DNA from: an uncultured Candidatus Poseidoniales archaeon
GTDB taxonomy: Archaea > Thermoplasmatota > Poseidoniia > Poseidoniales > Thalassarchaeaceae
Assembly: GCA_905182515.1 (NCBI GenBank)
Contig: CAJJBW010000001.1
Location: 146,275 to 210,274 of the forward strand
Direction: 5' to 3'
DNA length: 64,000 nt
The position numbers and the translations under genes are program-made. Positions 3,155-49,647 of this stretch are shown piece after piece (position 1 is the stretch's first letter; each line of letters begins with the position of its first letter). Under the pieces are notes generated by a model that saw only the letters and a list, made by a program, of their open reading frames with translations, was not told the DNA's origin and did no database searches.

Positions 3155-3385
3155 TTCGTCTTCAACAATAAGGTAAGCAGGTACTTCAGTAATGATTTTA
3201 CTACCAGAAGGCGCATCTGTTATTTCTTCAACAAGAACATAATCATCATCCAACAAACTCTCATCTAGAGCTGATAATCTCAGTTCAACTTGCCATCTCT
3301 TTATCATCTCATAAATTAAAATATAAATAATCAATATGAATACTATTGTAGAACAAATCCATGCTACAATATTTTGATCATCCAT
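3149..3385 (-). CDS. Small membrane protein with one TM helix and an acidic tail; hypothetical
   Basis: Hydrophobic segment 'VAWICSTIVFILIIYILIY' followed by a D/E-rich tail. Its start overlaps the pyrF stop by 8 nt. Confidence 0.45.
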   Translation of the reverse strand: MDDQNIVAWICSTIVFILIIYILIYEMIKRWQVELRLSALDESLLDDDYVLVEEITDAPSGSKIITEVPAYLIVEDES

Positions 3386-22186: not shown

Positions 22187-23691
22187 AACTTGAGTGTGGA
22201 ATTACCACCTTCAGGTATAACTGGTAATTGTAAAATTGTGCCATATAATGAAGGCCCAGTAGTTAAGGTTCCTATTATGGCTTCATCACTACCTGCAGCA
22301 TTGTGGGCCAAGGCAATCCAAGGCCTTCCCTCATCATCAATCTCTATATCTATAAAATCACCAAATCCTCCGCACCTTATATTCCCGCAATCAGGTAAAA
22401 TATCCAAAGGGTCACTTGGTATGTTAACTGCAACACTAGTAATTAGGGGATTTTCAGCAAATACATTAGTCATAATTGACATATAGCCAGACCAACCTCC
22501 TCCTGATGATTCATTCCAGTCTCTAGATTCTCCTATATATCCAATCACCACTCTTCCAGAATCTCCAGCAAATATTGTTGGAAAACCAGTTTCATTAACT
22601 TCTGGTGGAGCAACCATCATTGGAACACTCCAAGTTTCCCCTTGATCCTTGGAATATGCATACCATGGCATTTGATCATCAGATATCCAAGTAGCATGAA
22701 CATTCCCTCCTTCATCAACAGCGGTTGCAACCTCATGAGAATGCCATCCTTGCTGCATCCCAATCACGGTAGTTATGGTATGCTCACTCCAAGTTACTCC
22801 ACCGTCTAGTGAACGGTAGACTGCCGGACCTTCACATGATGGATTTCCTCTATAAATTGAACCATCTGTACCTGCAGCGAGATGGCCGTGTAACCCTGAG
22901 CATTGACTACCAAATGACTCAGTAGGGTAACCCAATCTCTGAACATCCCATGTCTGGCCACCTGTGACGGAACGAGAGCATTGAGGGCCAGCAGCAGCAG
23001 ATCCGGTGTTAATGCAATAAACATATACCACATCTCCAATAATGGCATTTGAATGCGGTACAGATGCTATACTCTGATGGTCTTGAGTTACATAATAACC
23101 TTCAACAGGATAGGGGATACTCCAAGATTCTCCATCATCATCAGAGTATTCTACAAACATAGCTGCCAGTGCATGCATATCAAATTTTACTAATCTATCA
23201 TTGAATTTATCAACATATAAATATGGATCGTTAGAATTTGGTGTTTGCCCCGAATCATCATCAACTTGGCCAAATGGCCCTACATCTTCCCATGTTTGCC
23301 CTTGATCTTGTGATCTAATAATATGTGTTCCGTCTCCAAGTCCATTATAATTTGTAAAGAAAATAGCGCCCGATGAAGTAATTCCTAATGTGGGCTCAAA
23401 AGTATCCCATCCAGTCCCATAATAGGTTCCAGCGGAATAAAAAGGAATGTTATCTCCTGTTAGATTTGGAGTTATATTTGCATTTAATACTGCATTAGGG
23501 TCAGTAGCATCAATTGCCCATGGGTTTATTGGATTACCAGGATAATGGTACCATGTAGTAATAGGAATTTCCCCTTCTTCAAAGGAAAAAATACCATTGG
23601 TTTCTTCCATATTGTCTTCTTTTACGGATAAACAACCAGATAAAGTAGGCATTATCATGAGTATCGCAATAAACATACTAAGGTTTCTCAT
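22183..23691 (-). CDS. Secreted BNR/Asp-box beta-propeller protein, paralog B; predicted lipoprotein
   Basis: Asp-boxes 'SQDQGQTW', 'SDDDGESW', 'SVTGGQTW', 'SLDGGVTW' and 'SKDQGETW'. Lipobox 'LSGC' (Cys20). Confidence 0.8.
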   Translation of the reverse strand: MRNLSMFIAILMIMPTLSGCLSVKEDNMEETNGIFSFEEGEIPITTWYHYPGNPINPWAIDATDPNAVLNANITPNLTGDNIPFYSAGTYYGTGWDTFEPTLGITSSGAIFFTNYNGLGDGTHIIRSQDQGQTWEDVGPFGQVDDDSGQTPNSNDPYLYVDKFNDRLVKFDMHALAAMFVEYSDDDGESWSIPYPVEGYYVTQDHQSIASVPHSNAIIGDVVYVYCINTGSAAAGPQCSRSVTGGQTWDVQRLGYPTESFGSQCSGLHGHLAAGTDGSIYRGNPSCEGPAVYRSLDGGVTWSEHTITTVIGMQQGWHSHEVATAVDEGGNVHATWISDDQMPWYAYSKDQGETWSVPMMVAPPEVNETGFPTIFAGDSGRVVIGYIGESRDWNESSGGGWSGYMSIMTNVFAENPLITSVAVNIPSDPLDILPDCGNIRCGGFGDFIDIEIDDEGRPWIALAHNAAGSDEAIIGTLTTGPSLYGTILQLPVIPEGGNSTLKL

Positions 23692-30815: not shown

Positions 30816-31412
30816 ATGGCATCGACTGGCCTGATAGCAGTACTTGTATTCATAATACCAATGTGTTTTACCCCCGGACCAAATAATTTACTTTGTGCTG
30901 CACACGGGTCTCAACATGGCTTTCGAAAAACCATTCCTCTTACTCTTGGTATGGCAATTGGTTGGACAACTCTAGGGATGTTTGTTGCAGCATTCACCTC
31001 ATTTATTGAAGAATATAATACATTTTTTGACTTATTGACATATGTTGGAGCCCTGTACATCACATATTTAGCATATAAGATCGCTTCATCTTCACATCTT
31101 AAGGAAGAAACCAAAACAGAGTTATTAGGTATCAAGACAGGAATATTCTTACAAGTAGTCAATGGAAAAGCATGGATCCATTTTTTGGTACTAATGTCAA
31201 TGCCATTCACAGCATTTGGTAGTGGATTTTTAGCAAATGCTGGATTGGTTATTTTAAATTTATTTTTTGGCTATCCTGCAGTTCTAACCTGGTCTTATTT
31301 TGGAACGGTTTTAAGAGTATTTTTTAAATCACCAGAAAAGGTAATGTGGCTTAATTATGGCTTAGGCGTGTCATTATTTGCTGTCGCAGTTTGGATTATT
31401 TTGCCACATTAG
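30816..31412 (+). CDS. LysE/RhtB-family exporter (second copy in the window)
   Basis: 'FTPGPNNLL' N-terminal motif; 6-TM size. Confidence 0.7.
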   Translation: MASTGLIAVLVFIIPMCFTPGPNNLLCAAHGSQHGFRKTIPLTLGMAIGWTTLGMFVAAFTSFIEEYNTFFDLLTYVGALYITYLAYKIASSSHLKEETKTELLGIKTGIFLQVVNGKAWIHFLVLMSMPFTAFGSGFLANAGLVILNLFFGYPAVLTWSYFGTVLRVFFKSPEKVMWLNYGLGVSLFAVAVWIILPH

Positions 31413-33118
31413 TAGTCTAAAGAGGAACCAGATACTTCAGCCAACCATTTCATGCCAGATTTGTAATCATCAATGGCATCTAGATTATCATTTACTAATA
31501 AATCCTCAGCCGCATCCCACAGAGAACGCAATGCTGGAACCCAATCTCCACCTTTGTCTCTACTTGATTCATCAAACCTCCACGCATCTGATTCTGTCCT
31601 GTCATGTACATTGAGCCAAGCCCATCCCATTGCCATTTCCAAACCTTTACTTTTTCGAGCTTTCGAAACAGTTGATGCTACGCCATTTTTAATTGCATGC
31701 CTGATAAGAAAATCAGCAAAACTTAATGGAGAATTCAAATCTTCAGATTTCCATGGTAATCTATTAAGTCGTTTTGTAATGAACAAGCTTTCTTTCAATT
31801 CTCTTAAAAATGCTCCAAAGCCTTGTTTTCTTTGAGATTGCTTGTCAATTATATCACCAATTTCTTCTTCTGATATTTCATACATTTTGTCTAATATTAT
31901 GTGCCCATATTTAGGCCAAAGTGCTACTAGAACGGGGTGACAAGATGAGTCTTCAAATCTAATTACCTCTTCTTCTAAATCTATTATCAGGCCATCAGAT
32001 CTAACATGAATGCCAGTATCAAGAGAAGCTAGAATATATGATATAGCCTCTTTCTCATCATCGGTCCCATTCATTTCTTCTAACATCTTATCTAAGTCTT
32101 CACTGTTATACCAACGATTACCTATGACAAATCCATCTTTAATTGAATTTAGAATACCGCTTCTACAAGCACTAGCTAATTTTTTATCATCATATAACAT
32201 AAGCAACCATTGTTGTAACACTTCTTCGACCTTTTCAATTCCTTCAGGAGGCAAATCCTTACCTTTAGGCCAACCCTCCGGTCTCCAAATCCAATCAGAT
32301 TTAATTATTTCACCAATCTTTGGTGGCATCATTGACATAGCTATACTCTGAACAAATGATTCTTCAGCCCTCACTAACGAATCCCTAGATATTCCTGCTA
32401 TTACACCATTATCAAATTCTAATTTCAACCATCCACTTTCGGTTATAGTATTATTTGTAACTATTGTCTCATCTAATCCCTTTGACCATTTAATAGTGCT
32501 CCCAGATAAGCCTATACTTGCATTCTCTAAGACATAATTTATCCAGTCATCTGGGGCATCTGCATTTTTTCCGGTGAATACAAATCCTTTGTCCCACGAA
32601 AAGAACCATTGTCCCGACTTAGCATGATCATCCCATACTAGCATTCGTAATTTTGTATGATTAAAATTTTGTATCCCTGCTAAGTGACTTTGTTTACCAT
32701 TACCTCTTCGAATATAACTTGCAGATCCAAAAAGTGGATTTTTGAATACAGAAACTGTCGATAAATCGCCACCACTTGCAGCCAACAAGCTTCCAGCCAA
32801 CGCTCTACAAACTAAATCTCCTCCTTTTTTGCCCATTCTTCTTGTTAACCATTTTTTATCGTGCCTTTTTTTAGACACCGAATCAATTTCTTGCAATGTT
32901 AGCGCCATCAAGTCTTTGTTTTTACCAAAGAATGAAGCTTTACCAATTTCACCTTTAATTTCAGGTAAAAATATTTCTGGATTATCTAATAAATCTTGCA
33001 AGTTTTTCTCTAATCGCTTTTGTATTTCTTTACTTGCTTGTTTAATTCCCCTGACTCTTACTTTCTTTCTCCGGTTTTTATCGCCGGGAAAACTAACTTC
33101 AGCAGGGGGTTTCGCCAT
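31409..33118 (-). CDS. 569-aa hypothetical protein with a basic N-terminus; no family recognised
   Basis: Long uninterrupted ORF starting 12 nt downstream of dph5 on the same strand. N-terminal 'KNRRKKVRVRGIKQ'. Confidence 0.65.
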   Translation of the reverse strand: MAKPPAEVSFPGDKNRRKKVRVRGIKQASKEIQKRLEKNLQDLLDNPEIFLPEIKGEIGKASFFGKNKDLMALTLQEIDSVSKKRHDKKWLTRRMGKKGGDLVCRALAGSLLAASGGDLSTVSVFKNPLFGSASYIRRGNGKQSHLAGIQNFNHTKLRMLVWDDHAKSGQWFFSWDKGFVFTGKNADAPDDWINYVLENASIGLSGSTIKWSKGLDETIVTNNTITESGWLKLEFDNGVIAGISRDSLVRAEESFVQSIAMSMMPPKIGEIIKSDWIWRPEGWPKGKDLPPEGIEKVEEVLQQWLLMLYDDKKLASACRSGILNSIKDGFVIGNRWYNSEDLDKMLEEMNGTDDEKEAISYILASLDTGIHVRSDGLIIDLEEEVIRFEDSSCHPVLVALWPKYGHIILDKMYEISEEEIGDIIDKQSQRKQGFGAFLRELKESLFITKRLNRLPWKSEDLNSPLSFADFLIRHAIKNGVASTVSKARKSKGLEMAMGWAWLNVHDRTESDAWRFDESSRDKGGDWVPALRSLWDAAEDLLVNDNLDAIDDYKSGMKWLAEVSGSSLDY

Positions 33119-35325: not shown

Positions 35326-35913
35326 ATGTCTGATGTCCAACTTGTGATTGACGTTGTAGATAATGGAGGACAATGGACTCACCGTGAATGGAGAATGTTA
35401 CGATATTTGGACGTTAATACCAAAATTTTATCCAATAAAACTCCACTTTCTGAATTTAGACAAGTCGATGGGTTGATTCTTTCTGGAGGCGCTGCAAGAG
35501 TTGGATTAACAGGGGAATTAGGTAATTGCGCTGAATATTTTGAATTGGATGTACCAATACTTGGAATTTGCGCAGGTCATCAATTCATGGCTGATTTTTA
35601 TGGTGGTAGTTCACGTGAAGCACTAAAACCAGAATTTGGAGAAGCTACAATCACATTAGTCAATGGAGGAGGTAGATTGTTTCAATCTACACCAACCAAA
35701 CAAATGGTTTGGGAAAGCCACAATGATGAAGTCATAGAATTACCTAAAAATTTTACAATAACGGCGTTTAGCCCCTCTTGTCAAATCCAGGCAATGGAAA
35801 ATGAATTTGGAAATAGATTTGGCGTACAATTCCACCCCGAGGTTGACCATTCTGAATACGGACAAGAAATATTTTCAAATTTTGTCAAAATTTGTAAATC
35901 TTCAAAAAATTGA
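35326..35913 (+). CDS. guaA: GMP synthase, glutamine amidotransferase subunit A
   Basis: 'VIDVVDNGGQWTHREWR', 'ILGICAGHQ' and 'QFHPEV'. The start is taken at ATG 35326 (MSDVQ) rather than 35260, which runs into the tRNA promoter region. Confidence 0.85.
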   Translation: MSDVQLVIDVVDNGGQWTHREWRMLRYLDVNTKILSNKTPLSEFRQVDGLILSGGAARVGLTGELGNCAEYFELDVPILGICAGHQFMADFYGGSSREALKPEFGEATITLVNGGGRLFQSTPTKQMVWESHNDEVIELPKNFTITAFSPSCQIQAMENEFGNRFGVQFHPEVDHSEYGQEIFSNFVKICKSSKN

Positions 35914-35962
35914 TACTATACCCAAAGGACAGATTGAAGAAGGGCAGGTGGGTCGCCCAAAC

Positions 35963-36235
35963 ATGGCTAAAGAGACCGAACACATGATTCTGTACAAGTG
36001 TAGGAGAACTCTTCGTACTCAGAGAATGCCCTATAATCCGACCGGAGATGTAATTTCCCCTTTTGATAATGTATCTATGATGGATCCAATGGAGATTAGA
36101 TACAAATGTCTTCGATGTGGGCATCTGGCATGGGTAGAAGCTGGCTCAACTGGAAAATCTTGTCACAAATGTGGATATCGCATCTTTATAAAACCAAGAA
36201 AACCAGGCGAACACAAGATTCTAAAAGCAGAATGA
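35963..36235 (+). CDS. rpoP: DNA-directed RNA polymerase subunit P (Rpo12) zinc ribbon, possibly with an N-terminal extension
   Basis: The C-terminal 48 aa, 'MEIRYKCLRCGH...KSCHKCGYRIFIKPRKPGEHKILKAE', match the RpoP pattern (CxxC...CxxCGY+I...+PR). Alternative starts at 36077 or 36089 would give the canonical ~50 aa. Confidence 0.65.
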   Translation: MAKETEHMILYKCRRTLRTQRMPYNPTGDVISPFDNVSMMDPMEIRYKCLRCGHLAWVEAGSTGKSCHKCGYRIFIKPRKPGEHKILKAE

Positions 36236-36340: not shown

Positions 36341-39300
36341 ATGAGTAACGCGAGCCAGTCCAAAAGAACAGCTTCTTTTCTAGTATTATTAATGATATTA
36401 ACTCCTGTATTAAGTTTGCAAACAAGTATGTTAGACACAAATCAAATTGATATTGAAAATAATTTCCAATTTAGAACTAATTCAAGTAATTCTGTAGTCG
36501 ATTGTGAATTAACAAATGTAACTATTACCGAGATTTATCACTATGGTAGTAACGAATGGTTCGAACTACATAATAGTGGTAATGAAACATGTGATTTGGG
36601 AGAATGGATAATCGGCGACAATGACGGATCTAATTTTCAGATTTCCAACGATACTAATATTACTTCTGATGGGTATATGTTATTCTCTAGAAGTAATAAT
36701 GATTTTAATTTCGACGTATCATGTTCTAATACAATGCTAATTGCAACTAGGGATGTTAGTTTTTCTAATGCAACCGACATAACCTCTTTGAGTTGTTACG
36801 GAGAATATGACGATAATTATTACACCACTAGTGGCGACGGCTCATGGGAGAATTGCAACGATGTGTGGGATTGGAATGAACCAGATGAGATGACTCCTAA
36901 TGCTACTAACTTATGCGCGGGTAATCCAATTATTTTATATGCCTTAGAATCGGATGGAACTTTAACCCAAAATCCAATTTCTATTAATAATGGAAGCTCA
37001 ACATTATTTTGGAATACAAGTAACTTACAAGATGGTCTTGAATACCAACTTTATTCAAATTGGAATTCTGAAACTTCATATGATTCCCAAACTAGTATTT
37101 TTATTGCAGATGGTTCAGATATAGAATTTAATTTAGATTCGAATCCATACTGGACCTGTGAAATTGGAATTAATGCATACATACTAAACCAATCTTCAGG
37201 TCAAACTGTAGAAAGATATACTAATGATTTAGACGTAAATTGCGATGTAGAAACGTCTCTTATATTGACGCATGTTTCCGATGGTTCAGAAGTAATTAGT
37301 GATGGATTCAATTTTAGCGGTAATAACTGGGGAGGAGACATTAAGTGGACAATTAGTAGTACAGAAATGAATATTCAAAATGATTACAAGTTGCAGGTAA
37401 TCATAAACCAAGACGATGAAGTAACATACTTCTCTCAAAGTGATTCCTGCGATAGCTGGCTAACATCTACTTCCTGTTTTATTGAAGAAAATTTTGTAGT
37501 TTATAACGAAACTTGCGACATATCAATTTTAGGATCATTCTACACAATTTCACCTTATGGATGGACAGAAATTGGAAGTAAAGAAATTAATGGTGTTGGC
37601 CTCTGTGATGGCGTTTCTGATGAGATTGAACCAGCAATTAGTCTATATATGAAAAATACTCTAAATGGTGAAACTTGGACAGAAGTTACAGATGACAATT
37701 ACGAACTTGATGAAAATACGACTACTCAAGAGTACTATTGGCAGTTTTCGGAATCTGCAATTGGTTCTGATGTAAGATTCCTATTCTATTATGAATATGA
37801 AAATGTAATGGATGAACAGTATAATTATGATGGCCTTCCAATATTTTGGAATGCTTCAATTAACGATTGCAATCCAAATATATATGCATATATCTATCTA
37901 TCCTCGCCAAATGGCGCTTCTCAAAACATCGATTATTGGTCCAGAACTATGTCTATAAGTTGTGAAGATTCAGAAGATATTGCTTTGCATATTCACAATG
38001 AAAGTAACTCCGACAATGACCTAGACAATGGAACAACAAATATGATCACAAATCTATCTAATCTTAATATTGGTGAAGAATACTTATTTGAGTGGTATTC
38101 ATATGAAAGTAGTTCATATACTGCTTCTAATGATGGTGCTGTTTATGGCGAGTATTATGACACATATACATTTACTCCTACATCTGAATTTGAATTAATT
38201 AATTGGGCTTTTGAAACACCTGGCCATTTATGTTCTATTACTATCTATTCTAATCTATATGTTATGTCAAACTTTTCTCAAGAATGGTGGCCCGTAGAAC
38301 AAATAGCAACTAATGATTGGCAGGAAGTAGATTATGCTAGCCTTGGTACTAGTGGCATCTGTGATGGTTCTGATATAGCCGAATTCAGCCCTGTAAATTT
38401 ATATTATAATTATGAAAATACATGGATTGAAGTAAACGAATCTACAAATTTATCTTCAGGAATTCATGATATGAAATGGCAAATTAGCGGTCTTAGCGAA
38501 GATATCAGCCTCTCACTTAACACCAATGTTGAGTATTATCTAAATAGTACTTATCATAGTTCATCCTACATTGGAAACGGAAATTTTGAATCTATTTGGG
38601 AACTAACTGTATCAGATTGGTCTTGTAATATCAATTATGAATTTGACTTGTATTTCTATACTATGAACGGAAATGGATATAATATTGACCAAGAAGTTGA
38701 CAATTCATTTATAGATGGGCCTTGCAACTCTCCAGTAGATGTTAGTAGTAGCAATGGCAATGAACCTAGCATGTCAGTGTCAGTTGTTGAAGGAAATACA
38801 GTAACTGAGATTGATTCAGGGAACCAGCTGAATGAAGGTGTAAATACCCTTAGATGGAATATTCAAGATCCAGTAGAAGATTATGAGCATTATATTCACA
38901 TGTATTTACAGTATAATGGAGCAAGACAAGAAATTTTATCCCATAGCTTCATTGCAGATTCTGGAGATATGTATGGAGATTGGACAATAGATATCCAAGA
39001 AGATGCGTGTGACTTGTATTTATTTTCAAGTTTATACGTTAAAGAGTATAATACTTGGGACCAAATCGACTCTCAAGGTATAAATATAGGTTATTCTGGA
39101 AATAATTCTGATTGTAATTACTCTACTCACCAATTTACAATTTCTGCATTAGATAATGAGACGTGGATTCAGAATCCAGATTCTCTAAATATCGGAATGA
39201 ATCAATTGAAATTCGACATCGAATCCCTTGATTTATTTGATAATATGACTTATTATATTAATACTAATTTTAATGGAATAGGATCAAATTCATTCAGTTT

Positions 39301-42300
39301 CTCTACATATTTTGATTTAGGCACTGGATCTTCAGTATCTCAATCTAATAACTATTATTATACTGGAGATGATATTTATTTCAATTTCACTGTAGAAGAA
39401 TGGACCTGTAGTGCTCAGGCGTCTTCACAAATTTACTATTTGACTCCTTACGGAGGTTGGGAAAATATTAGAAGTATGCCATCTGTTAATTTCGACGTTG
39501 ACGGTTGTTCAGCCCCGGCAGAACTGTCTCTATCACGCTTTATAGAGGGGGAATGGGAAGAAGACTTAGAAGGCCATAATACATTTGAATTAGAGGTAGG
39601 AGTAAATGAAATGTATTGGAACATGTCCAACTTAAATATGGAAGAAAAATATGAATTATATTTCTATGTTTATGAAAATAATAAATATACATATCAATCA
39701 GCAGGTGCTACTTTCTATCCTGAAGATTCTTCAATATCTTGGTATTTCCCATTAGATATAGAACAATCTAGTTGCAATTTACATGGTTATGGTACTTTAA
39801 GAATATATTCTGATGGTCATTTTAGAGATATTGATTCCATAACTTTCTATCCTGAAGAGCCATGTATTCCAGAGTTTGATATCACATTCCTAGATGACTC
39901 ATCATCTTGGTTAGATACATCAAATAACTCACTATCTCTTGGCACTAATCAAATGCTTTTTGATCTATCAAATTTAGGTCACGGAGATTATGAAATAGAC
40001 TATTATTGGAATAGTGAAAATACAGCAAACGGATGGTTCTATGATAACTATTTCACCGTAGATGAAAATAACAATGGTTTGTATTGGAATATGACTTTAG
40101 AAGAGACAGATTGTAATATATATATTGATATAAATGTTTATGATAGATCATACCAACGTAATGATTACATTGGAGGTTATAATAATGTTGAACTAATTGG
40201 CCCTTGTATGTTGCCATTCTCATTAGAAGTTGCAAATGCCGATGGAACTTTTGATGATGCCAATGATGATTCTTTAGTATCTGGTATAAATAATATGGTT
40301 TGGAATATTACTTATTTAGAAATTGGTAGTGATTACCGATTAAACTGGCACTGGTATTCAGCCACTGATAGTATGCAAACAGATTATGATTTTACTTACA
40401 ATGGTACAGATATATTCTGGGACTTAAACCTCTCAATTTGGGACTGCTATGTTAATATCAATGCTTACCTGTATAATGATAGTAATGGCGGTAATAATGA
40501 ATTTACTCAGTACTTAACATATAATCCAGAAGGATGCAAGGAAGGAGGAGTCATTAACCTTCAAGCAAATAGGTCTTATGGCTGGGATGATACTGATGAT
40601 AATACAAATGCTAATGATGGTATAAATGAACTTAGATGGAATGTAAATAACTTAGAAATAAATTATAGTTATACTTTAGAAGTGTTAGCTTATAATAATG
40701 GATATCTAATGGATTATACGACTACCACTTGGTATTCTTCTTCAGACAATGAAATAATAGAATTTACAATTGATATAGAAGAACAAACTACTTGCAACGT
40801 CAGATTTTCTGCTAGATTGTTTGTCGACTCCGGAATTAAATTAATTCAGGTTGACAATAGAGACTTCTATATTTATCCAGATTGTGATAATTCAGAAGAA
40901 TTTTGGACAATACCTGTTTTAGTATTGCAGGATGACGGCACATGGTCTGAAACACCCTTTTCTGAGAATGGCAATATTACAGTAAGATTAGATTTATCAA
41001 ATTTACAAAATGAAACAATGTATTACATCAATGGCTATGTTTCTAATGATTATACATCTGAATCCTTTAATTGGAATGACTTTTACCCTTCTGATGAACC
41101 AAATTATATAGATTTGGAAATTACATCTGACCAGTGGACCTGCGAAATTTCAGTATATGTTCACTTACATATGTATACAATTACAGGTAATGAGCACGTC
41201 AGTATCCCACAATATTATATAGATACTCCATGTATAGATATTGGCGAAATTGAATTAGATTATAATGGGCAACAATCCTCATCTAATAATATAAATTTAC
41301 AAAATGGTACCAACAATATGACATGGGATTTAACAGAGTTAATAAATAATCAATCATACACCTTAGAATGGAAAACTCAATACAACAATGATATTGTCGA
41401 CTATCAATACGAAACATGGTTTACTGGTAATGATACAAATGCTACATTTGAATGGATTTTAGAGTTAGATACAGAAATAACATGCAATGTAAATATCGAC
41501 TATAGAATTTTTATAGATATATCTTCAGACTCTTCTCTAGACTGGAAAGAAATGATAAATATGAATTATTACGATAGCATTAGTTGTAATGAATATGTTT
41601 ACCCAGATAACTATTACTTGAACTTACACGCTGAAATTAATGGTACAATGGTGGAAGATCCAGAGACTCTCCCTTCAGGAGAAGTAAACTTTGAACTACA
41701 CTTCGAAAACATGTCAGTTGGTGCTGATTACAGAATGTATTTCTATTACAGTAATACAGGATTTAATAGTAATTCTCAATACATATATTTCACATACGAT
41801 GGCTCTCCAATGGAGATGACTATCGACATCGCTCCTTGGGCATGTGATGTTTACTTTAATTGGGATATGTATTTGTTAGACTTTAGATATGATTCTGGAA
41901 ATAGTTACAACGAGTGGTATCTAGGAAATGATAATTTCTACATCGACGGCCCTTGTGAAACTTTGAATTATGACAGTTCTGACTACCCTAATTTCACAGT
42001 AACAGATGATGCTGGAAATGATATTGATGATGATACTGATTTCTCAACAGGAAACAACACAATCATACTTGGAGCAGATAATCTACAGAATGATTTCCCT
42101 TATTATATGGAATTACAAGTACGTTATGACGGATATCTAAATATCTTCAATACTCATAGATTTATAGGAAACAACACAACTGCAGAAGAGTTTGTAGTGA
42201 CATTAGATATTCCCGGACATGTATGTAATGTAGAAGTAAGATCTTACTTCTATGTAATTACTTCAAGTGGAAGTAATCAGATGAACTCCACAAATCACTA

Positions 42301-45300
42301 TGCAGATGGACCATGTGATGGATCAGATGGAGATAGCCGAATCAATACTCCATTACACGCGTACATCAACGGAACATGGGTTGAAGTTGATGATGATACT
42401 TTCTTCCCTACTGGAGATACAGACTTGTCTTGGAATCTTAGCGCATTAGATCCAGATACATACTATTACATGAATTTCAATGCAGCTAATTCTGGATGGA
42501 GTGGATACTTCTATGGAGATGATATCCCAGATTATCTATCAGATTGGACAATGACTCTGAGTGAGTTTAAATGTGATATGTATATCTATAATTCTATCTA
42601 TGCAATCAGTGATTATACTGGTTGGAATGATTTCGGCAGTGACTACTTATATCCAAACAATGATTGTCTAGATGGTGGAGATATTACTCTAGAAGCTCAA
42701 GATGATGAAGGCAATTGGAGCTCACTAACATCTTATGGTTTTGATCTATTACCAGGAACAACAAACTTCTCTTGGTCATTAGATAATCTATTAGAAGGAT
42801 ATGATTATGAATTTTATTGGTATCAACAAGGATCAGATTATGTATCTGAATACCAATATTTCACTGCAGATTCTAATGGTTCAGAATCACTTGATTTCTC
42901 AATAACAATAGATCAATACGAGTGTAACGTGTATTTCTATGCATACTTGAGACCAATGTCTGAATATACTGATACGTATGAAGAAACAGAAAGTTTCTCC
43001 TTTTGGCCAAACACACCATGCTATCCTCCATTCAACGTTGCTGCAGAAGATGCTGCAGGTGATTTGACTTTGGATGCATTAGATCCTGACTTTGTACTAA
43101 GCCCAGGAGATAATCACTTATTCTTTGACTTCAATCATATGGATAATGGAACAACATACTACCTAGATTGGTACTGGAGCTCCCAGAATAGCTGGAATGG
43201 CTGGTATCAAAACTATATCTATGTAGATACTTCAGACAATATCTCTGATGGTCTACATTTCAATATGACTTTGGATCAAATGGAATGTTATGCTTATGTT
43301 TATGTGAACGTGTATAATTATTCTAATGGTAATTCAAACCACATGGGAGCCTATGACATTAATTTCGAAGGACCTTGTATGGTACCATTCGATCTAGATG
43401 GTATACCTGAGAATAATATTATTGATATCGGTGAAAATAATTATACTTGGAATCTTGATAATCTAGATACAGGTAGCAATTATTCTTTAGAGTATTATTA
43501 TTCTATGAATTCAGGATGGTATGGTTTTTATAATCACGACTTTACATTCAATGGTACGGAAGAATTTATTGATTTCAGTATGAATGTTACCGAGTGGGAT
43601 TGCAATGTAAACATCAATGCAAATATTTACAATACAACAGATGGAAATATGAATTATATATATGGAGAATCCTGGAACTTGTATAATCCAAATTGTTATC
43701 AAGTTGATTATTATGCATTAGATTCTGATGGAGATTGGATTCAATATAATAATATTGACGCAGGAACTACTGAATTATTCTGGGAAATAAACTACATGAA
43801 TGAAAATGTTCCAACCGGATATGAATTTAAATTACAATATGAAGTAGTAACAGATTATGATTGGTCTAATTCGATTCAGTATAGCATTAATTGGACACAA
43901 GACGATAATACAATACAACAACTACCATGGAGTATTAGCATTAATGAGTTTGTATGCAACGTCTATGTAACTTCCAATTTATATGTAAATACATCAAATG
44001 GATGGTCGAGTGTTAGAGGATCCGGATTCGATCTCTACGCTCCTTGTGAACCAATGCCTTCAGGATGGTATAACTTCTCTATGAATGATAACGGAACTTG
44101 GGATCAATTGTATGACGGCTGGAATCACATGATTCAAGAAGAGGGAGTTTATGAAATGAGATGGAATGTAATGGACCTTGATATCGGAGTTACATACGAA
44201 ATGTCTTGGGTTGCGTATGCATTTGGGCACGAATTATCAAGTTATTCATTGCAATGGAATGCAACAGATAGTAATGGCACAATAGATTTTAACATCACTA
44301 TTCCACATTGGTATTGTGGTATGGAATTTGAGTCTAAATTGTCCTTCGATAATGATGGTACAATGTTTGACATAGCATCTAACTATTATTATGAAGAAGG
44401 TCCTTGCAATTCTTCTATTGAGGAATTCACAGATGCAGTCAATGTTGATTTAGATTTGATACTTATTAATGATAATATATATTCTCAAAATTATGAACTT
44501 ATGATACCATTTGGCTATACTCTTAATGATGAAATAAAACTATACTTAGATGCGGTATTTGGTAATATGGATGGTATTCTAAACGCATCAGAGGCAACCA
44601 TGGCAGAGAATTCATTTAATTCACAAACAAATGGTACTGAAGAGACAACTCCGGAATTCGCATTGAACGGAGTAAATTTGACTAGTTTCACATTTAATCC
44701 AGCAATTCTAAGTAATTTAACAGGAACTCCAACGCTTACTGGATCATGGATTTTAGAATATTTCCATATATATGGTGTTGAAGTAACTTTAACAATTGAA
44801 CTTGAATCTGAAGAAGAAATTGAATGGTATTTCAATATCTTAGAAAACTTAGACCTTATGGTGGAATCTGTTAAGGTTACAGATAGTGAGAATGTATCTA
44901 TGATGCTATCAAATAGCTTTAATCTTACATCTGGAAATTATTCGCTGAACATTACTTGGTTATTGGCTAATATTCCAGATCCAAATTTAGAATTAGAACA
45001 ACTTGATCTAGTTTCTGAGGAGTTTGATGAATTAACAAATATAATGGATGAGAGTTTCAATGTGACTATCCATACTTTCCAGATAAATCTAACTAATTTG
45101 AGCCATCAAGATTATTTAATCACCTACAATGTACATGTTGATGAATATTATGATGATAACGTATCATATGATATTAACCAAGAAGTGAACAATGACATCA
45201 GAAACTTTACTTTACTATCGAATATACACACGTGTAGTGCTTTAATTTCTATTGAAGTGTATGATAGAAATAATGAACAGGTACTTAGTGAAAATTACAC

Positions 45301-46489
45301 ATTAGAAGGTACATGTCAACCATATGATTATGATATGGACGGTATTTCTAATGAAGATGATGCATTCCCATTCGATGCAAGTGAATGGCTAGATACAGAT
45401 GGAGATGGTTATGGAGACAACTCAGATGCATTCCCTAATGATTCAAACGAGTCATTAGATACTGACGGAGATGGAATTGGAAATAACGCTGATGATGACG
45501 ATGATGGCGATGGAATAGATGATGAATCAGATAATGATAACGATGATGATGGAGTTTCTGACGATTATGACGTATTCCCTTACGATCCAACTGAATGGTC
45601 TGATGATGACGGTGACGGAGTTGGAGACAATTCCGATGTTTTCCCTTACGATCTAACTGAATGGTCAGATTATGATGGCGATGGAATTGGAGATAACTCT
45701 GATGACGATTCTGATGGCGATGGAGTGCCTAATGATGTCGACGATCTACCTTTCAATAGTGAAGAATCATCCGATACTGACGGCGATGGAGTAGGGAATA
45801 ATAATGATGCATTCCCTAACGACCCTGATGAACAATTAGATACTGATGGTGACGGAGTTGGAGATAATGCTGACGGTGATGATGATGGTGACGGAGTTGG
45901 AGATAACTCCGATGCATTCCCATTAGATTCAACTGAAACAACCGATACTGATGGTGACGGATTTGGAGATAATGTAGACCAATTCCCCACAGATTCCAAT
46001 GAAAATACTGATAGTGATGGAGATAATGTTGGAAATAACGCTGATGCATTCCCCAGTAACCAAAATGAATGGGCAGATTCTGATGGTGACGGAGTTGGAG
46101 ATAACTCCGATGTGTTCCCATCTAATGCAGCTGAAACTACAGATACAGATTCTGATGGATTTGGAGATAACTCCGATGAATTCCCTAATAATGCTAACGA
46201 ATGGATTGATACAGATGATGATGGAGTTGGTGATAATGCTGATTTATTCCCAAGCAATATTAATGAATGGGCAGATTCTGATTCTGATGGAACTGGAGAC
46301 AATTCCGATGCATTCCCTGACGATGATTCAGAAACAGAGGATACAGATGGCGATGGTATTGGAGACAATGCACAAGCCGCTGCTGAAGAGGCCGATAAAG
46401 ACGGATTTTTACCAGGATTTTCATCAATAATGGGTGCAGTATCTATGTTGGGTGCCGCAATATTAGTAGCCGGACGACGAAAAGACTGA
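36341..46489 (+). CDS. 3382-aa acidic secreted cell-surface giant (signal peptide, LTD, repeat modules, TSP3 repeats, PGF-CTERM)
   Basis: Single uninterrupted ORF. See the sub-features below for the domain evidence. Confidence 0.9.
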   Translation: MSNASQSKRTASFLVLLMILTPVLSLQTSMLDTNQIDIENNFQFRTNSSNSVVDCELTNVTITEIYHYGSNEWFELHNSGNETCDLGEWIIGDNDGSNFQISNDTNITSDGYMLFSRSNNDFNFDVSCSNTMLIATRDVSFSNATDITSLSCYGEYDDNYYTTSGDGSWENCNDVWDWNEPDEMTPNATNLCAGNPIILYALESDGTLTQNPISINNGSSTLFWNTSNLQDGLEYQLYSNWNSETSYDSQTSIFIADGSDIEFNLDSNPYWTCEIGINAYILNQSSGQTVERYTNDLDVNCDVETSLILTHVSDGSEVISDGFNFSGNNWGGDIKWTISSTEMNIQNDYKLQVIINQDDEVTYFSQSDSCDSWLTSTSCFIEENFVVYNETCDISILGSFYTISPYGWTEIGSKEINGVGLCDGVSDEIEPAISLYMKNTLNGETWTEVTDDNYELDENTTTQEYYWQFSESAIGSDVRFLFYYEYENVMDEQYNYDGLPIFWNASINDCNPNIYAYIYLSSPNGASQNIDYWSRTMSISCEDSEDIALHIHNESNSDNDLDNGTTNMITNLSNLNIGEEYLFEWYSYESSSYTASNDGAVYGEYYDTYTFTPTSEFELINWAFETPGHLCSITIYSNLYVMSNFSQEWWPVEQIATNDWQEVDYASLGTSGICDGSDIAEFSPVNLYYNYENTWIEVNESTNLSSGIHDMKWQISGLSEDISLSLNTNVEYYLNSTYHSSSYIGNGNFESIWELTVSDWSCNINYEFDLYFYTMNGNGYNIDQEVDNSFIDGPCNSPVDVSSSNGNEPSMSVSVVEGNTVTEIDSGNQLNEGVNTLRWNIQDPVEDYEHYIHMYLQYNGARQEILSHSFIADSGDMYGDWTIDIQEDACDLYLFSSLYVKEYNTWDQIDSQGINIGYSGNNSDCNYSTHQFTISALDNETWIQNPDSLNIGMNQLKFDIESLDLFDNMTYYINTNFNGIGSNSFSFSTYFDLGTGSSVSQSNNYYYTGDDIYFNFTVEEWTCSAQASSQIYYLTPYGGWENIRSMPSVNFDVDGCSAPAELSLSRFIEGEWEEDLEGHNTFELEVGVNEMYWNMSNLNMEEKYELYFYVYENNKYTYQSAGATFYPEDSSISWYFPLDIEQSSCNLHGYGTLRIYSDGHFRDIDSITFYPEEPCIPEFDITFLDDSSSWLDTSNNSLSLGTNQMLFDLSNLGHGDYEIDYYWNSENTANGWFYDNYFTVDENNNGLYWNMTLEETDCNIYIDINVYDRSYQRNDYIGGYNNVELIGPCMLPFSLEVANADGTFDDANDDSLVSGINNMVWNITYLEIGSDYRLNWHWYSATDSMQTDYDFTYNGTDIFWDLNLSIWDCYVNINAYLYNDSNGGNNEFTQYLTYNPEGCKEGGVINLQANRSYGWDDTDDNTNANDGINELRWNVNNLEINYSYTLEVLAYNNGYLMDYTTTTWYSSSDNEIIEFTIDIEEQTTCNVRFSARLFVDSGIKLIQVDNRDFYIYPDCDNSEEFWTIPVLVLQDDGTWSETPFSENGNITVRLDLSNLQNETMYYINGYVSNDYTSESFNWNDFYPSDEPNYIDLEITSDQWTCEISVYVHLHMYTITGNEHVSIPQYYIDTPCIDIGEIELDYNGQQSSSNNINLQNGTNNMTWDLTELINNQSYTLEWKTQYNNDIVDYQYETWFTGNDTNATFEWILELDTEITCNVNIDYRIFIDISSDSSLDWKEMINMNYYDSISCNEYVYPDNYYLNLHAEINGTMVEDPETLPSGEVNFELHFENMSVGADYRMYFYYSNTGFNSNSQYIYFTYDGSPMEMTIDIAPWACDVYFNWDMYLLDFRYDSGNSYNEWYLGNDNFYIDGPCETLNYDSSDYPNFTVTDDAGNDIDDDTDFSTGNNTIILGADNLQNDFPYYMELQVRYDGYLNIFNTHRFIGNNTTAEEFVVTLDIPGHVCNVEVRSYFYVITSSGSNQMNSTNHYADGPCDGSDGDSRINTPLHAYINGTWVEVDDDTFFPTGDTDLSWNLSALDPDTYYYMNFNAANSGWSGYFYGDDIPDYLSDWTMTLSEFKCDMYIYNSIYAISDYTGWNDFGSDYLYPNNDCLDGGDITLEAQDDEGNWSSLTSYGFDLLPGTTNFSWSLDNLLEGYDYEFYWYQQGSDYVSEYQYFTADSNGSESLDFSITIDQYECNVYFYAYLRPMSEYTDTYEETESFSFWPNTPCYPPFNVAAEDAAGDLTLDALDPDFVLSPGDNHLFFDFNHMDNGTTYYLDWYWSSQNSWNGWYQNYIYVDTSDNISDGLHFNMTLDQMECYAYVYVNVYNYSNGNSNHMGAYDINFEGPCMVPFDLDGIPENNIIDIGENNYTWNLDNLDTGSNYSLEYYYSMNSGWYGFYNHDFTFNGTEEFIDFSMNVTEWDCNVNINANIYNTTDGNMNYIYGESWNLYNPNCYQVDYYALDSDGDWIQYNNIDAGTTELFWEINYMNENVPTGYEFKLQYEVVTDYDWSNSIQYSINWTQDDNTIQQLPWSISINEFVCNVYVTSNLYVNTSNGWSSVRGSGFDLYAPCEPMPSGWYNFSMNDNGTWDQLYDGWNHMIQEEGVYEMRWNVMDLDIGVTYEMSWVAYAFGHELSSYSLQWNATDSNGTIDFNITIPHWYCGMEFESKLSFDNDGTMFDIASNYYYEEGPCNSSIEEFTDAVNVDLDLILINDNIYSQNYELMIPFGYTLNDEIKLYLDAVFGNMDGILNASEATMAENSFNSQTNGTEETTPEFALNGVNLTSFTFNPAILSNLTGTPTLTGSWILEYFHIYGVEVTLTIELESEEEIEWYFNILENLDLMVESVKVTDSENVSMMLSNSFNLTSGNYSLNITWLLANIPDPNLELEQLDLVSEEFDELTNIMDESFNVTIHTFQINLTNLSHQDYLITYNVHVDEYYDDNVSYDINQEVNNDIRNFTLLSNIHTCSALISIEVYDRNNEQVLSENYTLEGTCQPYDYDMDGISNEDDAFPFDASEWLDTDGDGYGDNSDAFPNDSNESLDTDGDGIGNNADDDDDGDGIDDESDNDNDDDGVSDDYDVFPYDPTEWSDDDGDGVGDNSDVFPYDLTEWSDYDGDGIGDNSDDDSDGDGVPNDVDDLPFNSEESSDTDGDGVGNNNDAFPNDPDEQLDTDGDGVGDNADGDDDGDGVGDNSDAFPLDSTETTDTDGDGFGDNVDQFPTDSNENTDSDGDNVGNNADAFPSNQNEWADSDGDGVGDNSDVFPSNAAETTDTDSDGFGDNSDEFPNNANEWIDTDDDGVGDNADLFPSNINEWADSDSDGTGDNSDAFPDDDSETEDTDGDGIGDNAQAAAEEADKDGFLPGFSSIMGAVSMLGAAILVAGRRKD
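36503..36800 (+). other. Lamin-tail-like domain (LTD) within the giant protein
   Basis: 'VTITEIYHYGSNEWFELHNSGNETCDLGEWIIGDNDGSNFQI...GYMLFSRS' matches the LTD signature (I-EI...-EWIEL-N....DLSGW-L-D). Confidence 0.6.
36920..45322 (+). repeat. About 22 divergent tandem protein modules (~120 aa each) with two conserved Cys; one Cys-free ~280-aa spacer precedes the last module
   Basis: Recurrent '[LM]xW[ND][ILMV]xxL....Y' entry, 'WxC[ND][VI]x[IVF]....[LIV]Y' core and '[GTA]PC' exit. Examples are 'YWTCEIGINAYIL', 'TEWDCNVNINANIY', 'DQYECNVYFYAYL' and 'FIDGPC'/'FEGPC'/'ADGPC'. Confidence 0.8.
45323..46369 (+). repeat. About 18 thrombospondin-type-3-like Ca-binding repeats (DxDxDGxGDNxD-xFPxD)
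   Basis: 'DTDGDGVGDNSDAFPND'-type units repeated. At DNA level, 'ggtgacggagttggagataa' recurs several times. Confidence 0.85.
46400..46486 (+). other. PGF-CTERM archaeal sorting/anchor signal
   Basis: Extreme C-terminus 'DGFLPGFSSIMGAVSMLGAAILVAGRRKD': a PGF tripeptide, a hydrophobic helix and a basic end. Confidence 0.75.
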
Positions 46490-47332: not shown

Positions 47333-48700
47333 ATGGCAGAATTTGGTGACCACCCTTCTATTCCAGATAGTATCGAAAATTTATTGATTGATGATACTGT
47401 TTCTACAATATTTCTTAAAGCCGAATGCCCTACTAGGGTAAAAAGTGGCCATATTTCTTCTTTATCGCTGAAGCAGTTAGAAGATCCTCCTTGGGATAAA
47501 CCAACTTTACAGTTATTATGTGATGATTTATCTTTAGTAATAGAACAAAATGACGCTCGTTCAGACTGTTTCGTTGAAATTGAAAGAACAGGTTGTAAAA
47601 TAATGCAAATAGGAGATTTGCGAATTGCATGTGCGTGGCCACCCTTTTCAGATGCATGGGAAATTACAATCGTTAGGCCAGTAGCGTATTTACAAATTTC
47701 AGATTATGATCTAAATCCAGAATTAATGGGCAGATTAAAAGATCATCACAGAGGGGTGTTTGTAGTAGGCCGCCCCGGTTCTGGAAAGACAACTTTTGCT
47801 CAAGCAATAGCCGCGTATCTTGATTCTGAAGTAGGAGCAATGGTAAAAACAATGGAGGCCCCAAGAGATCTTCAAGTTCCACAACGAGTTACTCAATATG
47901 CACCACTGGAAGGAGATTTAGAAAAAACTGCCGAAGTAATTTTCTTGGTACGTCCTGATTTTGTTATTTTTGATGAAGTTCGTAGATCCAGAGATTTTGA
48001 AATATTTAGTGATGTGCGATTAGCGGGAGTGGGTTTACTCGGCGTAACTCATGCCAATAGTGCACTCGAAGCTATTCAAAGAATGGTTGGCAAGGTAGAA
48101 TTAGGTTTAATAGCACAGGTTCTTGATACTGTAATACATATTGAAAAAGGAAAAATAGCACAGGTTCTTGAGTTAAAAATGGTGGTTAGAGCACCTACAG
48201 GAATGGAATCAGATTTAAGCAGGCCAGTTATTGAAATTAAGGAATTTCCTTCTGGCAAAATAACTCACGAAATGTTTGCGTTTGGTTCAGAAATTGCTGT
48301 CGTACCAGTAAATATGGAGGATGGCGAGGGCGGAAGTCCTGCTATGAGGATGGCAGCTGAACAGTTAAAGAAAGAAATATCAAAGTTAACAGGAATTCCC
48401 GTATCTCACGCAAAATTTTTGACTGACGCTTCAGCTGAAATATACATTAACGAATCTAGTATCGGGGCAATGGTTGGGACTAGGGGCGAATCTATAAGAC
48501 AATTAGAGCAAGATTTGAATGTAAAGTTAAATGTAAATTCAGTTAAAGATTTACCTCGGGCGTTAAGAAAAAGAATTGAAAACTCCTCTAATAACTCCCA
48601 AGAAGACACAGATCAATGGCGCAGTAGATCTGGGAGGCAATGGGATAATAATCCTGGAAAAACTAAAAAAGGAAAAGGTAGGAAAGGAAGAAGGAACTAA
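47333..48700 (+). CDS. COG1855-type archaeal PilT-family ATPase with C-terminal KH domain and Lys/Arg/Gly-rich tail
   Basis: 'ACAWPPFSDAWEITIVRPV', Walker A 'GRPGSGKTT', 'VIFDEVR' and the KH GxxG 'VGTRGESIRQLE'. Confidence 0.7.
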   Translation: MAEFGDHPSIPDSIENLLIDDTVSTIFLKAECPTRVKSGHISSLSLKQLEDPPWDKPTLQLLCDDLSLVIEQNDARSDCFVEIERTGCKIMQIGDLRIACAWPPFSDAWEITIVRPVAYLQISDYDLNPELMGRLKDHHRGVFVVGRPGSGKTTFAQAIAAYLDSEVGAMVKTMEAPRDLQVPQRVTQYAPLEGDLEKTAEVIFLVRPDFVIFDEVRRSRDFEIFSDVRLAGVGLLGVTHANSALEAIQRMVGKVELGLIAQVLDTVIHIEKGKIAQVLELKMVVRAPTGMESDLSRPVIEIKEFPSGKITHEMFAFGSEIAVVPVNMEDGEGGSPAMRMAAEQLKKEISKLTGIPVSHAKFLTDASAEIYINESSIGAMVGTRGESIRQLEQDLNVKLNVNSVKDLPRALRKRIENSSNNSQEDTDQWRSRSGRQWDNNPGKTKKGKGRKGRRN

Positions 48701-49647
48701 ACCACCATTCTTCTATAAGCCATAAAAGTAATTATCAATATAATGATACTAATAATTCCCCCTCCATAAATTAAAGCCTCACCTTCTGAAATTCCTAAAT
48801 CATCCAATATAGTGAAGTTACTACCTAACCCATTTTCAATTACTCCTTTAATTTCTGGCGCTACAACTAGTAATACAGACTCTTCTTTCTGACAGGATTC
48901 TGCTACTAACTTTCTTTCATCCAAAATTATGAGGCAACCTCTATATTCTTCATTTAAGTTTGAAGGGGTCGTCATTTCAAATTCACAATTGGCAACTCCA
49001 CTACCACTTGATATTTGTATTGAACATTCACTACTCAAGATATTAAATCCAGAAACCCACATTCCCTCAGAGTTAGCATTTTCATCTACAAGATGTAGAT
49101 CCAAAATCATTTTCTGGTCCAAATTGCTGCTACATGAGTATGATGCTGAGAAAGTCACAATATCGCCCGCATTTACTTCAATCGAATTAACGCCATAATT
49201 CACATCACATGAGGTGTATTCTAGTAACTCCACTTCAACATTCCATTCCTCAGTATTTGTTAAGAAACCAACAGGAATTCCCACTGCAGTAGTTACTTCT
49301 GCTGTAATATTCATTTCATAAAATCCAGAGGAAATATCGCTACTTGTCTCGACAGACACCACAAAAGATTCTTCAGAGCCAGATGAAATTGAAACAGTAT
49401 TCGGGCCAGAAAATGTAAATTCTTCCGATTCATAGTTAATAGAAACATCTTCATCATAAGGTCTGTTATTTGTAAGGACACAATGAACATTTTCATTTTT
49501 ATTTAGTTGTGGATTTATTATTAGATTATCTTCAATACATTCTAGTTCAATGCCTGGTAATATTTCTTGTCCGGATACATTTGGTGTTATGACTACTAAT
49601 TGAGCCCCCAAAAAACAAAATAGAACCACTAGAACCTTACCACTCAT
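48697..49647 (-). CDS. 316-aa secreted Cys-containing protein with C-terminal TM anchor; hypothetical
   Basis: Signal peptide 'VLVVLFCFLGAQLVVITPNVSG' and C-terminal 'GGGIISIIILIITFMAYRR'. Confidence 0.6.
   Translation of the reverse strand: MSGKVLVVLFCFLGAQLVVITPNVSGQEILPGIELECIEDNLIINPQLNKNENVHCVLTNNRPYDEDVSINYESEEFTFSGPNTVSISSGSEESFVVSVETSSDISSGFYEMNITAEVTTAVGIPVGFLTNTEEWNVEVELLEYTSCDVNYGVNSIEVNAGDIVTFSASYSCSSNLDQKMILDLHLVDENANSEGMWVSGFNILSSECSIQISSGSGVANCEFEMTTPSNLNEEYRGCLIILDERKLVAESCQKEESVLLVVAPEIKGVIENGLGSNFTILDDLGISEGEALIYGGGIISIIILIITFMAYRRMVV

Follow-up and report, generated by a model that had tools for sequence, protein, structure and literature searches.

A Marine Group IIb archaeon encodes a giant predicted surface protein with 22 copies of an uncatalogued, probably Ig-like two-cysteine module

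Marine Group II (MGII) counts as one of the most abundant groups of planktonic archaea, but it has yet to be cultured, and hardly anything is known about the surface of its cells. What, then, is a 10-kb open reading frame (ORF) of one such organism, most of which is made up of copies of a single two-Cys sequence module? The ORF is located at positions 36341..46489 (+ strand) of a 64,000-nucleotide stretch of DNA (hereafter the window) from an uncultured Candidatus Poseidoniales archaeon (GenBank assembly GCA_905182515.1, contig CAJJBW010000001.1, positions 146,275 to 210,274), and codes for a protein of 3382 amino acids (aa). We identified 22 copies of the module, for which an immunoglobulin (Ig)-like fold is predicted. 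On balance, we consider it probable that the modules serve as the rod of an adhesin-like stalk that is anchored in the membrane and glycosylated, each module probably being stapled by a disulfide.

The repeat-bearing part of this single ORF is window 36917-45316. The protein has 52 Cys residues, and between aa 273 and 2689 their spacing alternates between ~30 and ~86 aa, giving 21 contiguous units of 106-133 aa each. The Cys pair of a 22nd unit (aa 2965/2992) is located downstream of a 190-aa Cys-free insert. The gene and its units were as follows:

36341..46489, + strand: giant protein, predicted to be secreted and C-terminally anchored at the cell surface (ORF list, translation)
36917..44407, + strand: units 1-21 of the ~117-aa two-Cys module, head-to-tail, aa 193-2689 (Cys periodicity, alignment, hidden Markov model (HMM) domain hits, leave-one-out HMM)
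36917, 37244, 37607, 37964, 38363, 38726, 39116, 39509, 39866, 40208, 40538, + strand: DNA starts of units 1-11
40886, 41234, 41588, 41957, 42317, 42668, 43022, 43379, 43697, 44048, + strand: DNA starts of units 12-21
44978..45316, + strand: unit 22, aa 2880-2992, set apart from the other copies and more divergent (HMM hit, E 2e-20)

An earlier note on this DNA, made by inspection of the letters and their translations, had described ~22 tandem copies and proposed that they be aligned and an HMM built. A MAFFT alignment of the 22 units showed that both Cys residues are invariant in all of them. When each unit was scored against an HMM built from the remaining units, with 200 composition-matched shuffles per unit as a control, the units obtained 20-80 bits and the shuffles no more than 15; the separated unit 22 scored 25 bits (≤6 for its shuffles). 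All 22 units are confirmed as true copies of the module. The copy number of the note was thus correct, but the array is not strictly tandem: as the 190-aa insert precedes the last unit, it is better described as 21 tandem units plus one. Three motifs were recognizable in the alignment: LxW[ND]xxNLxxGxxY, C[ND]VxIxAxLY and GPC. The second corresponds to the proposed core motif (WxC[ND]...). The first exists as proposed but does not open the unit, being located ~35 aa inside the domain, and the third was expected 35-45 aa after the core, whereas the Cys-Cys spacing within units was 27-43 aa (median, 30). Similarly, a conserved Cys pair is present in every unit, although not exactly two Cys residues as claimed, since unit 2 has four.

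Pairwise protein identity among the units was 11-37% (mean, 20%), and the module alignment had no conserved stretch of 7-10 columns. A faint similarity was seen at an offset of nine units (37% between units 9 and 18, and 36% between units 10 and 19). Tandem Repeats Finder (TRF) detected no ~350-bp period in the DNA of the gene, in agreement with the divergence at the DNA level that the note had pointed out, and the sole repeats reported were 66-bp thrombospondin-type repeats at 45575-46317. Because the units are ~20% identical, invisible to TRF and individually orthologous between species, the sequences support an old array, as had been proposed, although recent block duplications do occur in other assemblies (see below). 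A recent DNA expansion was also considered as the origin of the repeat, and was ruled out by the negative TRF result and the inter-unit identity of ~20%.

Sequence libraries contained no family for the module. A Pfam/NCBIfam scan of the whole protein found no family that matches the module, and only scattered noise was obtained when 64 units (those of the window protein and of two orthologs) were scanned singly against Pfam at E<=10. A sequence-profile search of the PDB with the module produced only a match to titin FN3 domains over 29 residues (E 0.022), and a word-indexed profile search with the 22 units gave no matches. The AlphaFold2 model of unit 11, based on a 64-row alignment, was all-beta with nine strands (predicted local distance difference test (pLDDT) 88.4, predicted template modeling score (pTM) 0.81), and the same strand pattern recurred three times in a model of units 9-11 (pLDDT 79.5), for which non-overlapping unit triplets were aligned. 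Foldseek comparison of the unit model with the PDB yielded 43 matches at E<=1e-3, all of which were Ig-like sandwiches, in the CARDB, RhoGDI, PDE-delta/UNC119, Wzt-CBD and PAD N-domain groups. The best match was the CARDB structure 3idu_A (PF1109 of Pyrococcus furiosus; E 5.7e-5, template modeling (TM) score 0.51/0.55, 118 aligned columns); a second CARDB structure, 2kl6, was found with E 9.7e-5, and RhoGDI 1ft0 had a TM score of up to 0.64. With the triplet model, tandem FN3 arrays (including fibronectin FN10-12) and macroglobulin-domain arrays were retrieved. The predicted model is a compact, two-sheet, all-beta domain, and both this layout and the structural matches are those of Ig-like/E-set beta-sandwiches. 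As the sequence libraries gave no family and AlphaFold2 and Foldseek gave only Ig-like sandwiches, the module is predicted to be an Ig-like (E-set/FN3-like) beta-sandwich of a sequence family absent from Pfam and NCBIfam; judging from the models, it is new at the sequence level only and its fold is ordinary. The earlier note had called the module unrecognised and beta-rich. The latter agrees with the model, and the former holds for its sequence (no Pfam, NCBIfam or PDB-sequence family) but not for its predicted fold. A known family and a fold that varies between units had also been named there as findings to look for; neither was seen, and the single unit and the triplet share one strand pattern.

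Two known families, CARDB and FN3, have to be compared with the module. CARDB (PF07705) is likewise an Ig-like sandwich of similar length that occurs in archaeal and bacterial surface proteins, and the fold of the model is similar to it (3idu_A and 2kl6). However, sequence identity is ~14%, none of the 64 units matched CARDB at E<=10, and the whole protein had no CARDB match at E<=1. To our knowledge, neither the conserved Cys pair nor the LxWNxxNLxxGxxY motif is characteristic of CARDB. FN3 (PF00041) was matched by one of the 64 units (E 0.11; 13.2 bits, cut-off 25), and an exhaustive profile search described below also pulled in non-acidic multi-FN3 proteins. The module and FN3 are alike in a local motif and in the array matches of the triplet model, whereas the module is ~30 aa longer. 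The shared motif is NLxxGxxYxL, which aligns with the tyrosine-corner motif of FN3 strands E-F (LxPGxxYxxxV); hhalign comparison of the module with 119 FN3 domains from the distant matches gave a probability of 66% over 31 columns only (module 32-62 with FN3 E-F). In the nine-strand module, LxxGxxY falls on strands 4-5 and is not in register with FN3 E-F. We treated this similarity as a shared local motif and not as family membership.

One further possibility came from the HMM mapping, which was consistent in its positions and in which module positions 20-65 corresponded to FN3 strands E-G and positions 81-97 to the A strand of the next FN3, such that the match spanned an FN3-FN3 boundary. A circularly permuted FN3 with its boundaries in the middle of our units would have this appearance. 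This idea was rejected because a unit cut after the PC motif was modeled as one compact domain (pTM 0.81), aligned sequentially with CARDB and RhoGDI over 118-131 columns (TM score up to 0.64), and had a 4-residue loop linking strands 6 and 7, where a permutation would need a connection of ~40 Å.

The unit model also places the two Cys residues. The first (C91) is located two residues before strand 93-102 and the second (C121) two residues after strand 107-119, and they flank the terminal hairpin formed by the second-last and last strands. Both were kept in 221 of the 222 family domains that span the two positions, against a background identity of ~20%. Because the pair is near-invariant, flanks this hairpin and would belong to an extracellular protein in oxic seawater, one intradomain disulfide per module is likely.

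Outside the repeat, the following features were detected in the giant protein:

36341..36421, + strand: signal-peptide-like N-terminus, aa 1-27 (translation: basic n-region KR, hydrophobic FLVLLMILTPVLSL)
36515..36835, + strand: lamin tail domain (LTD), aa 59-165 (Pfam PF00932; 35.9 bits, cut-off 34.3)
44408..44977, + strand: Cys-free 190-aa insert, aa 2690-2879, at the junction of units 21 and 22 (no Pfam/NCBIfam match)
45326..46375, + strand: thrombospondin type-3 (TSP3)-like Ca-binding repeats, aa ~2996-3345 (14 DxDxDGxG[DN] motifs; 66-bp DNA period)
46409..46486, + strand: PGF-CTERM-like sorting/anchor signal, the last 26 residues LPGFSSIMGAVSMLGAAILVAGRRKD (sequence: PGF, hydrophobic helix, basic cluster)

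The N-terminus resembles a Sec signal peptide and recurs in P0003, P0004 and P0005. The LTD, whose PF00932 score places it in this family, is located in a 6-Cys N-terminal region (aa 28-192) and is presumed to be the distal head. The insert was 81% identical to that of ortholog P0004. The repeats near the C-terminus consist of Ca-binding motifs homologous to those of thrombospondin and COMP: phmmer comparison of the region with PDB sequences found COMP (3fby, E 3.4e-11) and thrombospondin-2 (E 4.8e-10). Pfam TSP_3 reached 17.6 bits, which is below its cut-off of 25, and the NCBIfam MtsC model (NF047638) matched partially, in the repeats only (64.8 bits, cut-off 350). The C-terminus has the layout of a PGF-CTERM signal (PGF, helix and basic cluster), and the models TIGR04216 (ArtA-dependent S-layer glycoprotein) and TIGR04281 (PGF-anchored binding protein) matched weakly by their extreme tails only (E 0.027-0.053). 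The protein is very acidic (18% D+E, 1.7% K+R) and contains 88 NxS/T sequons, compared with 61.5+-6.9 in shuffled sequences (z about 3.8).

The TSP3 region also differs from the Ig-like array in its DNA. Periods of 66 bp (22 aa) and 198 bp, with 68-84% matches, were present at 45575-46317, and since repeats at the DNA level are confined to this region, it was homogenized or underwent expansion much later than the Ig-like array did.

These features suggest how the protein could be built and displayed. It would be exported by the Sec pathway and anchored in the membrane by its PGF-CTERM-like C-terminal signal, presumably after processing by an archaeosortase, with the TSP3 Ca-binding repeats positioned beside the membrane. 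The N-glycosylated Ig-like chain may then project outward by roughly 80-100 nm (at about 4 nm per domain), so that the LTD head and the distal modules, which evolve fast, face the environment. In an anchored chain of this kind, the modules would thus act as passive spacers that resist proteases and force. Rinke et al. (PMC6461757) have associated thrombospondin-type genes of Poseidoniales with adhesion.

Several observations weigh against an anchored, adhesin-like stalk. No match of the giant protein to the dedicated PGF-CTERM domain model was reported, and no archaeosortase was found among the window ORFs scanned, although no search was aimed at this enzyme. The gene has housekeeping genes as neighbors, and the locus contains no operon dedicated to secretion or glycosylation. 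In addition, its absence from one related genome (see below) shows that it is dispensable.

The host is a Ca. Thalassarchaeaceae archaeon of Marine Group IIb. In a contig scan, which gave no matches with the giant protein as query, the neighboring thermosome was used as the query for taxonomy and synteny; it was 74-87% identical to thermosomes of Ca. Thalassarchaeaceae/Poseidoniales metagenome-assembled genomes (MAGs). Orthologs of the giant protein (3386-4446 aa, 48-93% identity) were found in synteny, between GATase/rpoP and MOSC-PINA-thermosome, in about five related species (L001/L003, L002, L010 (MED-G38), L011 (TMED129) and L012). Fragments of the protein cluster are named in NCBI either 'hypothetical protein' or 'lamin tail domain-containing protein' and come from Ca. 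Thalassarchaeaceae/Poseidoniales.

Two other observations were made at this locus. In a PacBio MAG (L008, CALSZZ010000004.1), only about 800 bp (6195-6995) separate GATase from MOSC and the giant gene is absent; as the window has the same gene order on both sides (DphB-TYW2-GATase and MOSC-PINA-thermosome), this is a presence/absence polymorphism among related species. Four further contigs (L004-L007) stop at the 3' end of the giant gene, 2.0-2.3 kb upstream of the thermosome. They are four of the closest species-representative contigs, and their common end suggests that this repeat-rich gene routinely breaks MAG assemblies.

Such breaks raise the question of whether the ORF itself is an artefact of assembly or annotation (a chimeric ORF, or a repeat that is non-coding or was collapsed). 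Besides the contigs that end at the gene, this reading could draw on a variant from JGI that belongs to the same species (P0001, 4406 aa), which is otherwise 99-100% identical to the window protein and has nine extra units. Its aa 1736-3377, when compared with window 41588-43378, contain an exact internal duplication of 589 aa and four units resembling those of another lineage (90-99% identical to units 10-13 of P0004). A 9-unit block duplication was also present in P0003. Such variants could have arisen by genuine recombination or as chimeras during assembly, and because of the duplication and cassettes in P0001, the count of 22 units may be an under- or overestimate. An artefact is nevertheless extremely improbable: the 3382-aa product is identical in independent NCBI and ENA assemblies, the frame is open over 10 kb and has syntenic orthologs, and the units are too divergent (~20% identity) to collapse, apart from the recent block repeats in other strains. 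A non-coding artefact, in particular, was ruled out by the syntenic orthologs and independent assemblies.

The array does not evolve uniformly. Comparison of the window protein with P0004 showed 28-60% identity in the distal units 1-13 and 73-95% in the proximal units 14-22, while the flanking housekeeping proteins were 69-92% identical. Since units 1-13 fall far below the identity of the flanking genes and units 14-22 do not, the half that would be membrane-distal is hyperdivergent. The number of units varied from 22 to 31 among orthologs. Presence/absence and copy-number changes are a flexible-genome behavior typical of surface-exposed proteins. They could also reflect a protective or decoy coat, either a glycocalyx or a decoy of virus receptors, driven by pressure from viruses or grazers and not by attachment. 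The hyperdivergence of the distal half relative to the flanks, the mosaic cassettes, the changes in copy number and presence, and the high sequon density would all fit this explanation; however, they are expected equally of adhesins, and no viral link was found (the module profile was too degenerate for a scan of viral contigs). We regard a coat of this type as quite improbable.

To define the wider family, an exhaustive HMMER profile search was carried out over 1.84 billion representatives (50% clustering), which detected 244 proteins at E<=1e-3 and 25 at E<=1e-30. Among the matches listed, 68 of 150 proteins contained a near-full-length module; these 68 are acidic (mean D+E 19%, K+R 3%). All source-named family members among the matches listed belong to Thalassarchaeaceae, and 16 module-bearing proteins among them, other than the giant protein, end with the same LPGF..LGAA.L.AGRRKD tail. 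Domain architectures in the family included LTD plus modules and, in one case, LTD plus modules plus RCC1. In P0008, P0013 and P0036, a Peripla_BP_6 domain was embedded among two-Cys modules, LDL-receptor-A and TSP3, followed by the same PGF tail. The combination with different heads (LTD, Peripla_BP_6 and RCC1) argues for a role of the module as a spacer of general use outside the cell. Neither the module nor PGF-CTERM in MGII was described in the literature searched.

The three Thalassarchaeaceae proteins with Peripla_BP_6 (2232-2806 aa, with cluster members of up to 2821 aa) are annotated as 'ABC transporter substrate-binding protein' and are unusually large for solute-binding proteins.

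Proteins of this type point to nutrient capture as another possible function, in which the LTD head and the distal modules of the giant protein would bind polymers (DNA, protein or glycans), dissolved or particulate, and keep them close to the cell for extracellular peptidases and transporters encoded nearby. Sister proteins indeed carry amino-acid-type substrate-binding domains on the same stalk, genes for S15 and M28 peptidases, BNR proteins and transporters occur in the window, and bacterial LTDs are often found with secreted hydrolases. The giant protein, however, has no catalytic or solute-binding domain in Pfam/NCBIfam scans, and its gene is not genetically linked to a transporter, which makes this function unlikely for it.

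The anchor signal brings in a different comparison, with the S-layer glycoprotein of Haloferax volcanii and other ArtA substrates, which are likewise archaeal and have in common with the giant protein, as predicted, a PGF sequence followed by a transmembrane segment and a basic tail, as well as acidic, N-glycosylated Ig-like domains. If the giant protein were likewise an S-layer or other lattice-forming envelope protein, the modules would be the building blocks of the lattice. Its PGF-like anchor, a tail matched by the end of the S-layer glycoprotein model HVO_2072, and an acidic, sequon-rich sequence with Ig-like domains are consistent with such a role. The match to TIGR04216, however, is limited to the last ~50 residues (12.7 bits, cut-off 400), and the giant protein is ~4x larger than the Haloferax protein, variably present, equipped with LTD and TSP3, and without homology to it beyond the tail. 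A core lattice protein would be expected universally, whereas this gene is missing from the syntenic L008 locus; moreover, the unit number ranges from 22 to 31, the distal half is hypervariable, and the module also serves as the stalk of binding-protein heads. A lattice role is therefore distinctly unlikely.

For the adhesin-like stalk, which we favor, the closest parallels in design are the giant tandem-Ig adhesins of bacteria (Bap, SiiE, LapA and Marinomonas MpIBP). These contain tens of divergent ~100-aa Ig-like extenders, a distal binding region and Ca-binding elements. They are RTX or Bap proteins exported by type-1 secretion, and their domains are of the Big or cadherin-like families. 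In contrast, sequence features of the archaeal protein predict a Sec signal, a PGF-type anchor, an LTD head and TSP3 repeats; no RTX, Big or cadherin-type family was found in it by Pfam/NCBIfam scans, and its modules would be stapled by disulfides rather than bridged by Ca as the bacterial extenders are. As in the archaeal protein, the copy number of the bacterial extenders varies between strains (for Acinetobacter Bap, PMC4647330). A second parallel involves Myxococcus MtsC, a MYXO-CTERM protein of cell cohesion, and eukaryotic thrombospondin/COMP, whose TSP type-3 repeats are homologous to the C-terminal ~350 aa of the giant protein. In MtsC, as in the giant protein, a sorting signal at the C-terminus comes after the repeats; however, MtsC and thrombospondin/COMP lack the two-Cys module, and the match covers the repeats only. 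As the predicted fold is conventional, the finding extends the known design of tandem Ig-like stalks to a new lineage and does not introduce a new principle.

A bolder possibility, which is doubtful, is that the two-Cys module is a universal stalk specific to the Marine Group IIb lineage, and that these cells carry a glycosylated canopy of ~100 nm made of PGF-anchored rods with interchangeable heads. The heads would be LTD, the RCC1 propeller and ABC-transporter substrate-binding domains, the last of these within proteins of 2400-2800 aa, and the fast-evolving, recombining distal units could form the interface with particles, prey polymers or viruses of Poseidoniales; this part of the proposal is equally doubtful. 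If it were true, it would amount to a new mode of long-range capture of substrates and particles in the most abundant archaea of the surface ocean. Module-bearing proteins are candidate attachment factors or virus receptors. Because family databases miss the module, giant genes are annotated as 'hypothetical' or after a minor domain, and a module profile would improve the annotation of MGII surface proteomes and flag a locus that breaks assemblies.

Other genes in the window include several that encode possible surface or secreted proteins. One of them, at 48697-49647 (- strand), codes for a protein of 316 aa that has a beta-rich body besides a signal peptide, ends in a transmembrane segment with an RR tail, and matches the NCBIfam 'choice-of-anchor T' model below threshold (52 bits, cut-off 70). 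PINA and the thermosome flank this gene, whereas in L001 they are just 183 bp apart; given this empty position, it is a second variable surface-protein gene beside the giant one. A 999-aa ORF at 14962-17964 (- strand), with no Pfam/NCBIfam match, 5.8% K+R and 13 Cys residues, probably encodes another secreted protein; it adjoins an M28 peptidase gene and is near two tandem BNR/Asp-box paralogs (20678-23691). A 569-aa ORF at 31409-33118 (- strand) has no family match, and its counterparts at the same position in L001 and L002 are 81-84% identical. Directly upstream of the giant gene, at ~36101-36235 (+ strand), a ~44-aa sequence resembles Rpo12 (RNA polymerase subunit P; E 1.8e-7, below the curated cut-off). 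The 144-aa ORF that contains it (35801-36235) is probably an over-extension, since its frame overlaps the end of the GATase gene.

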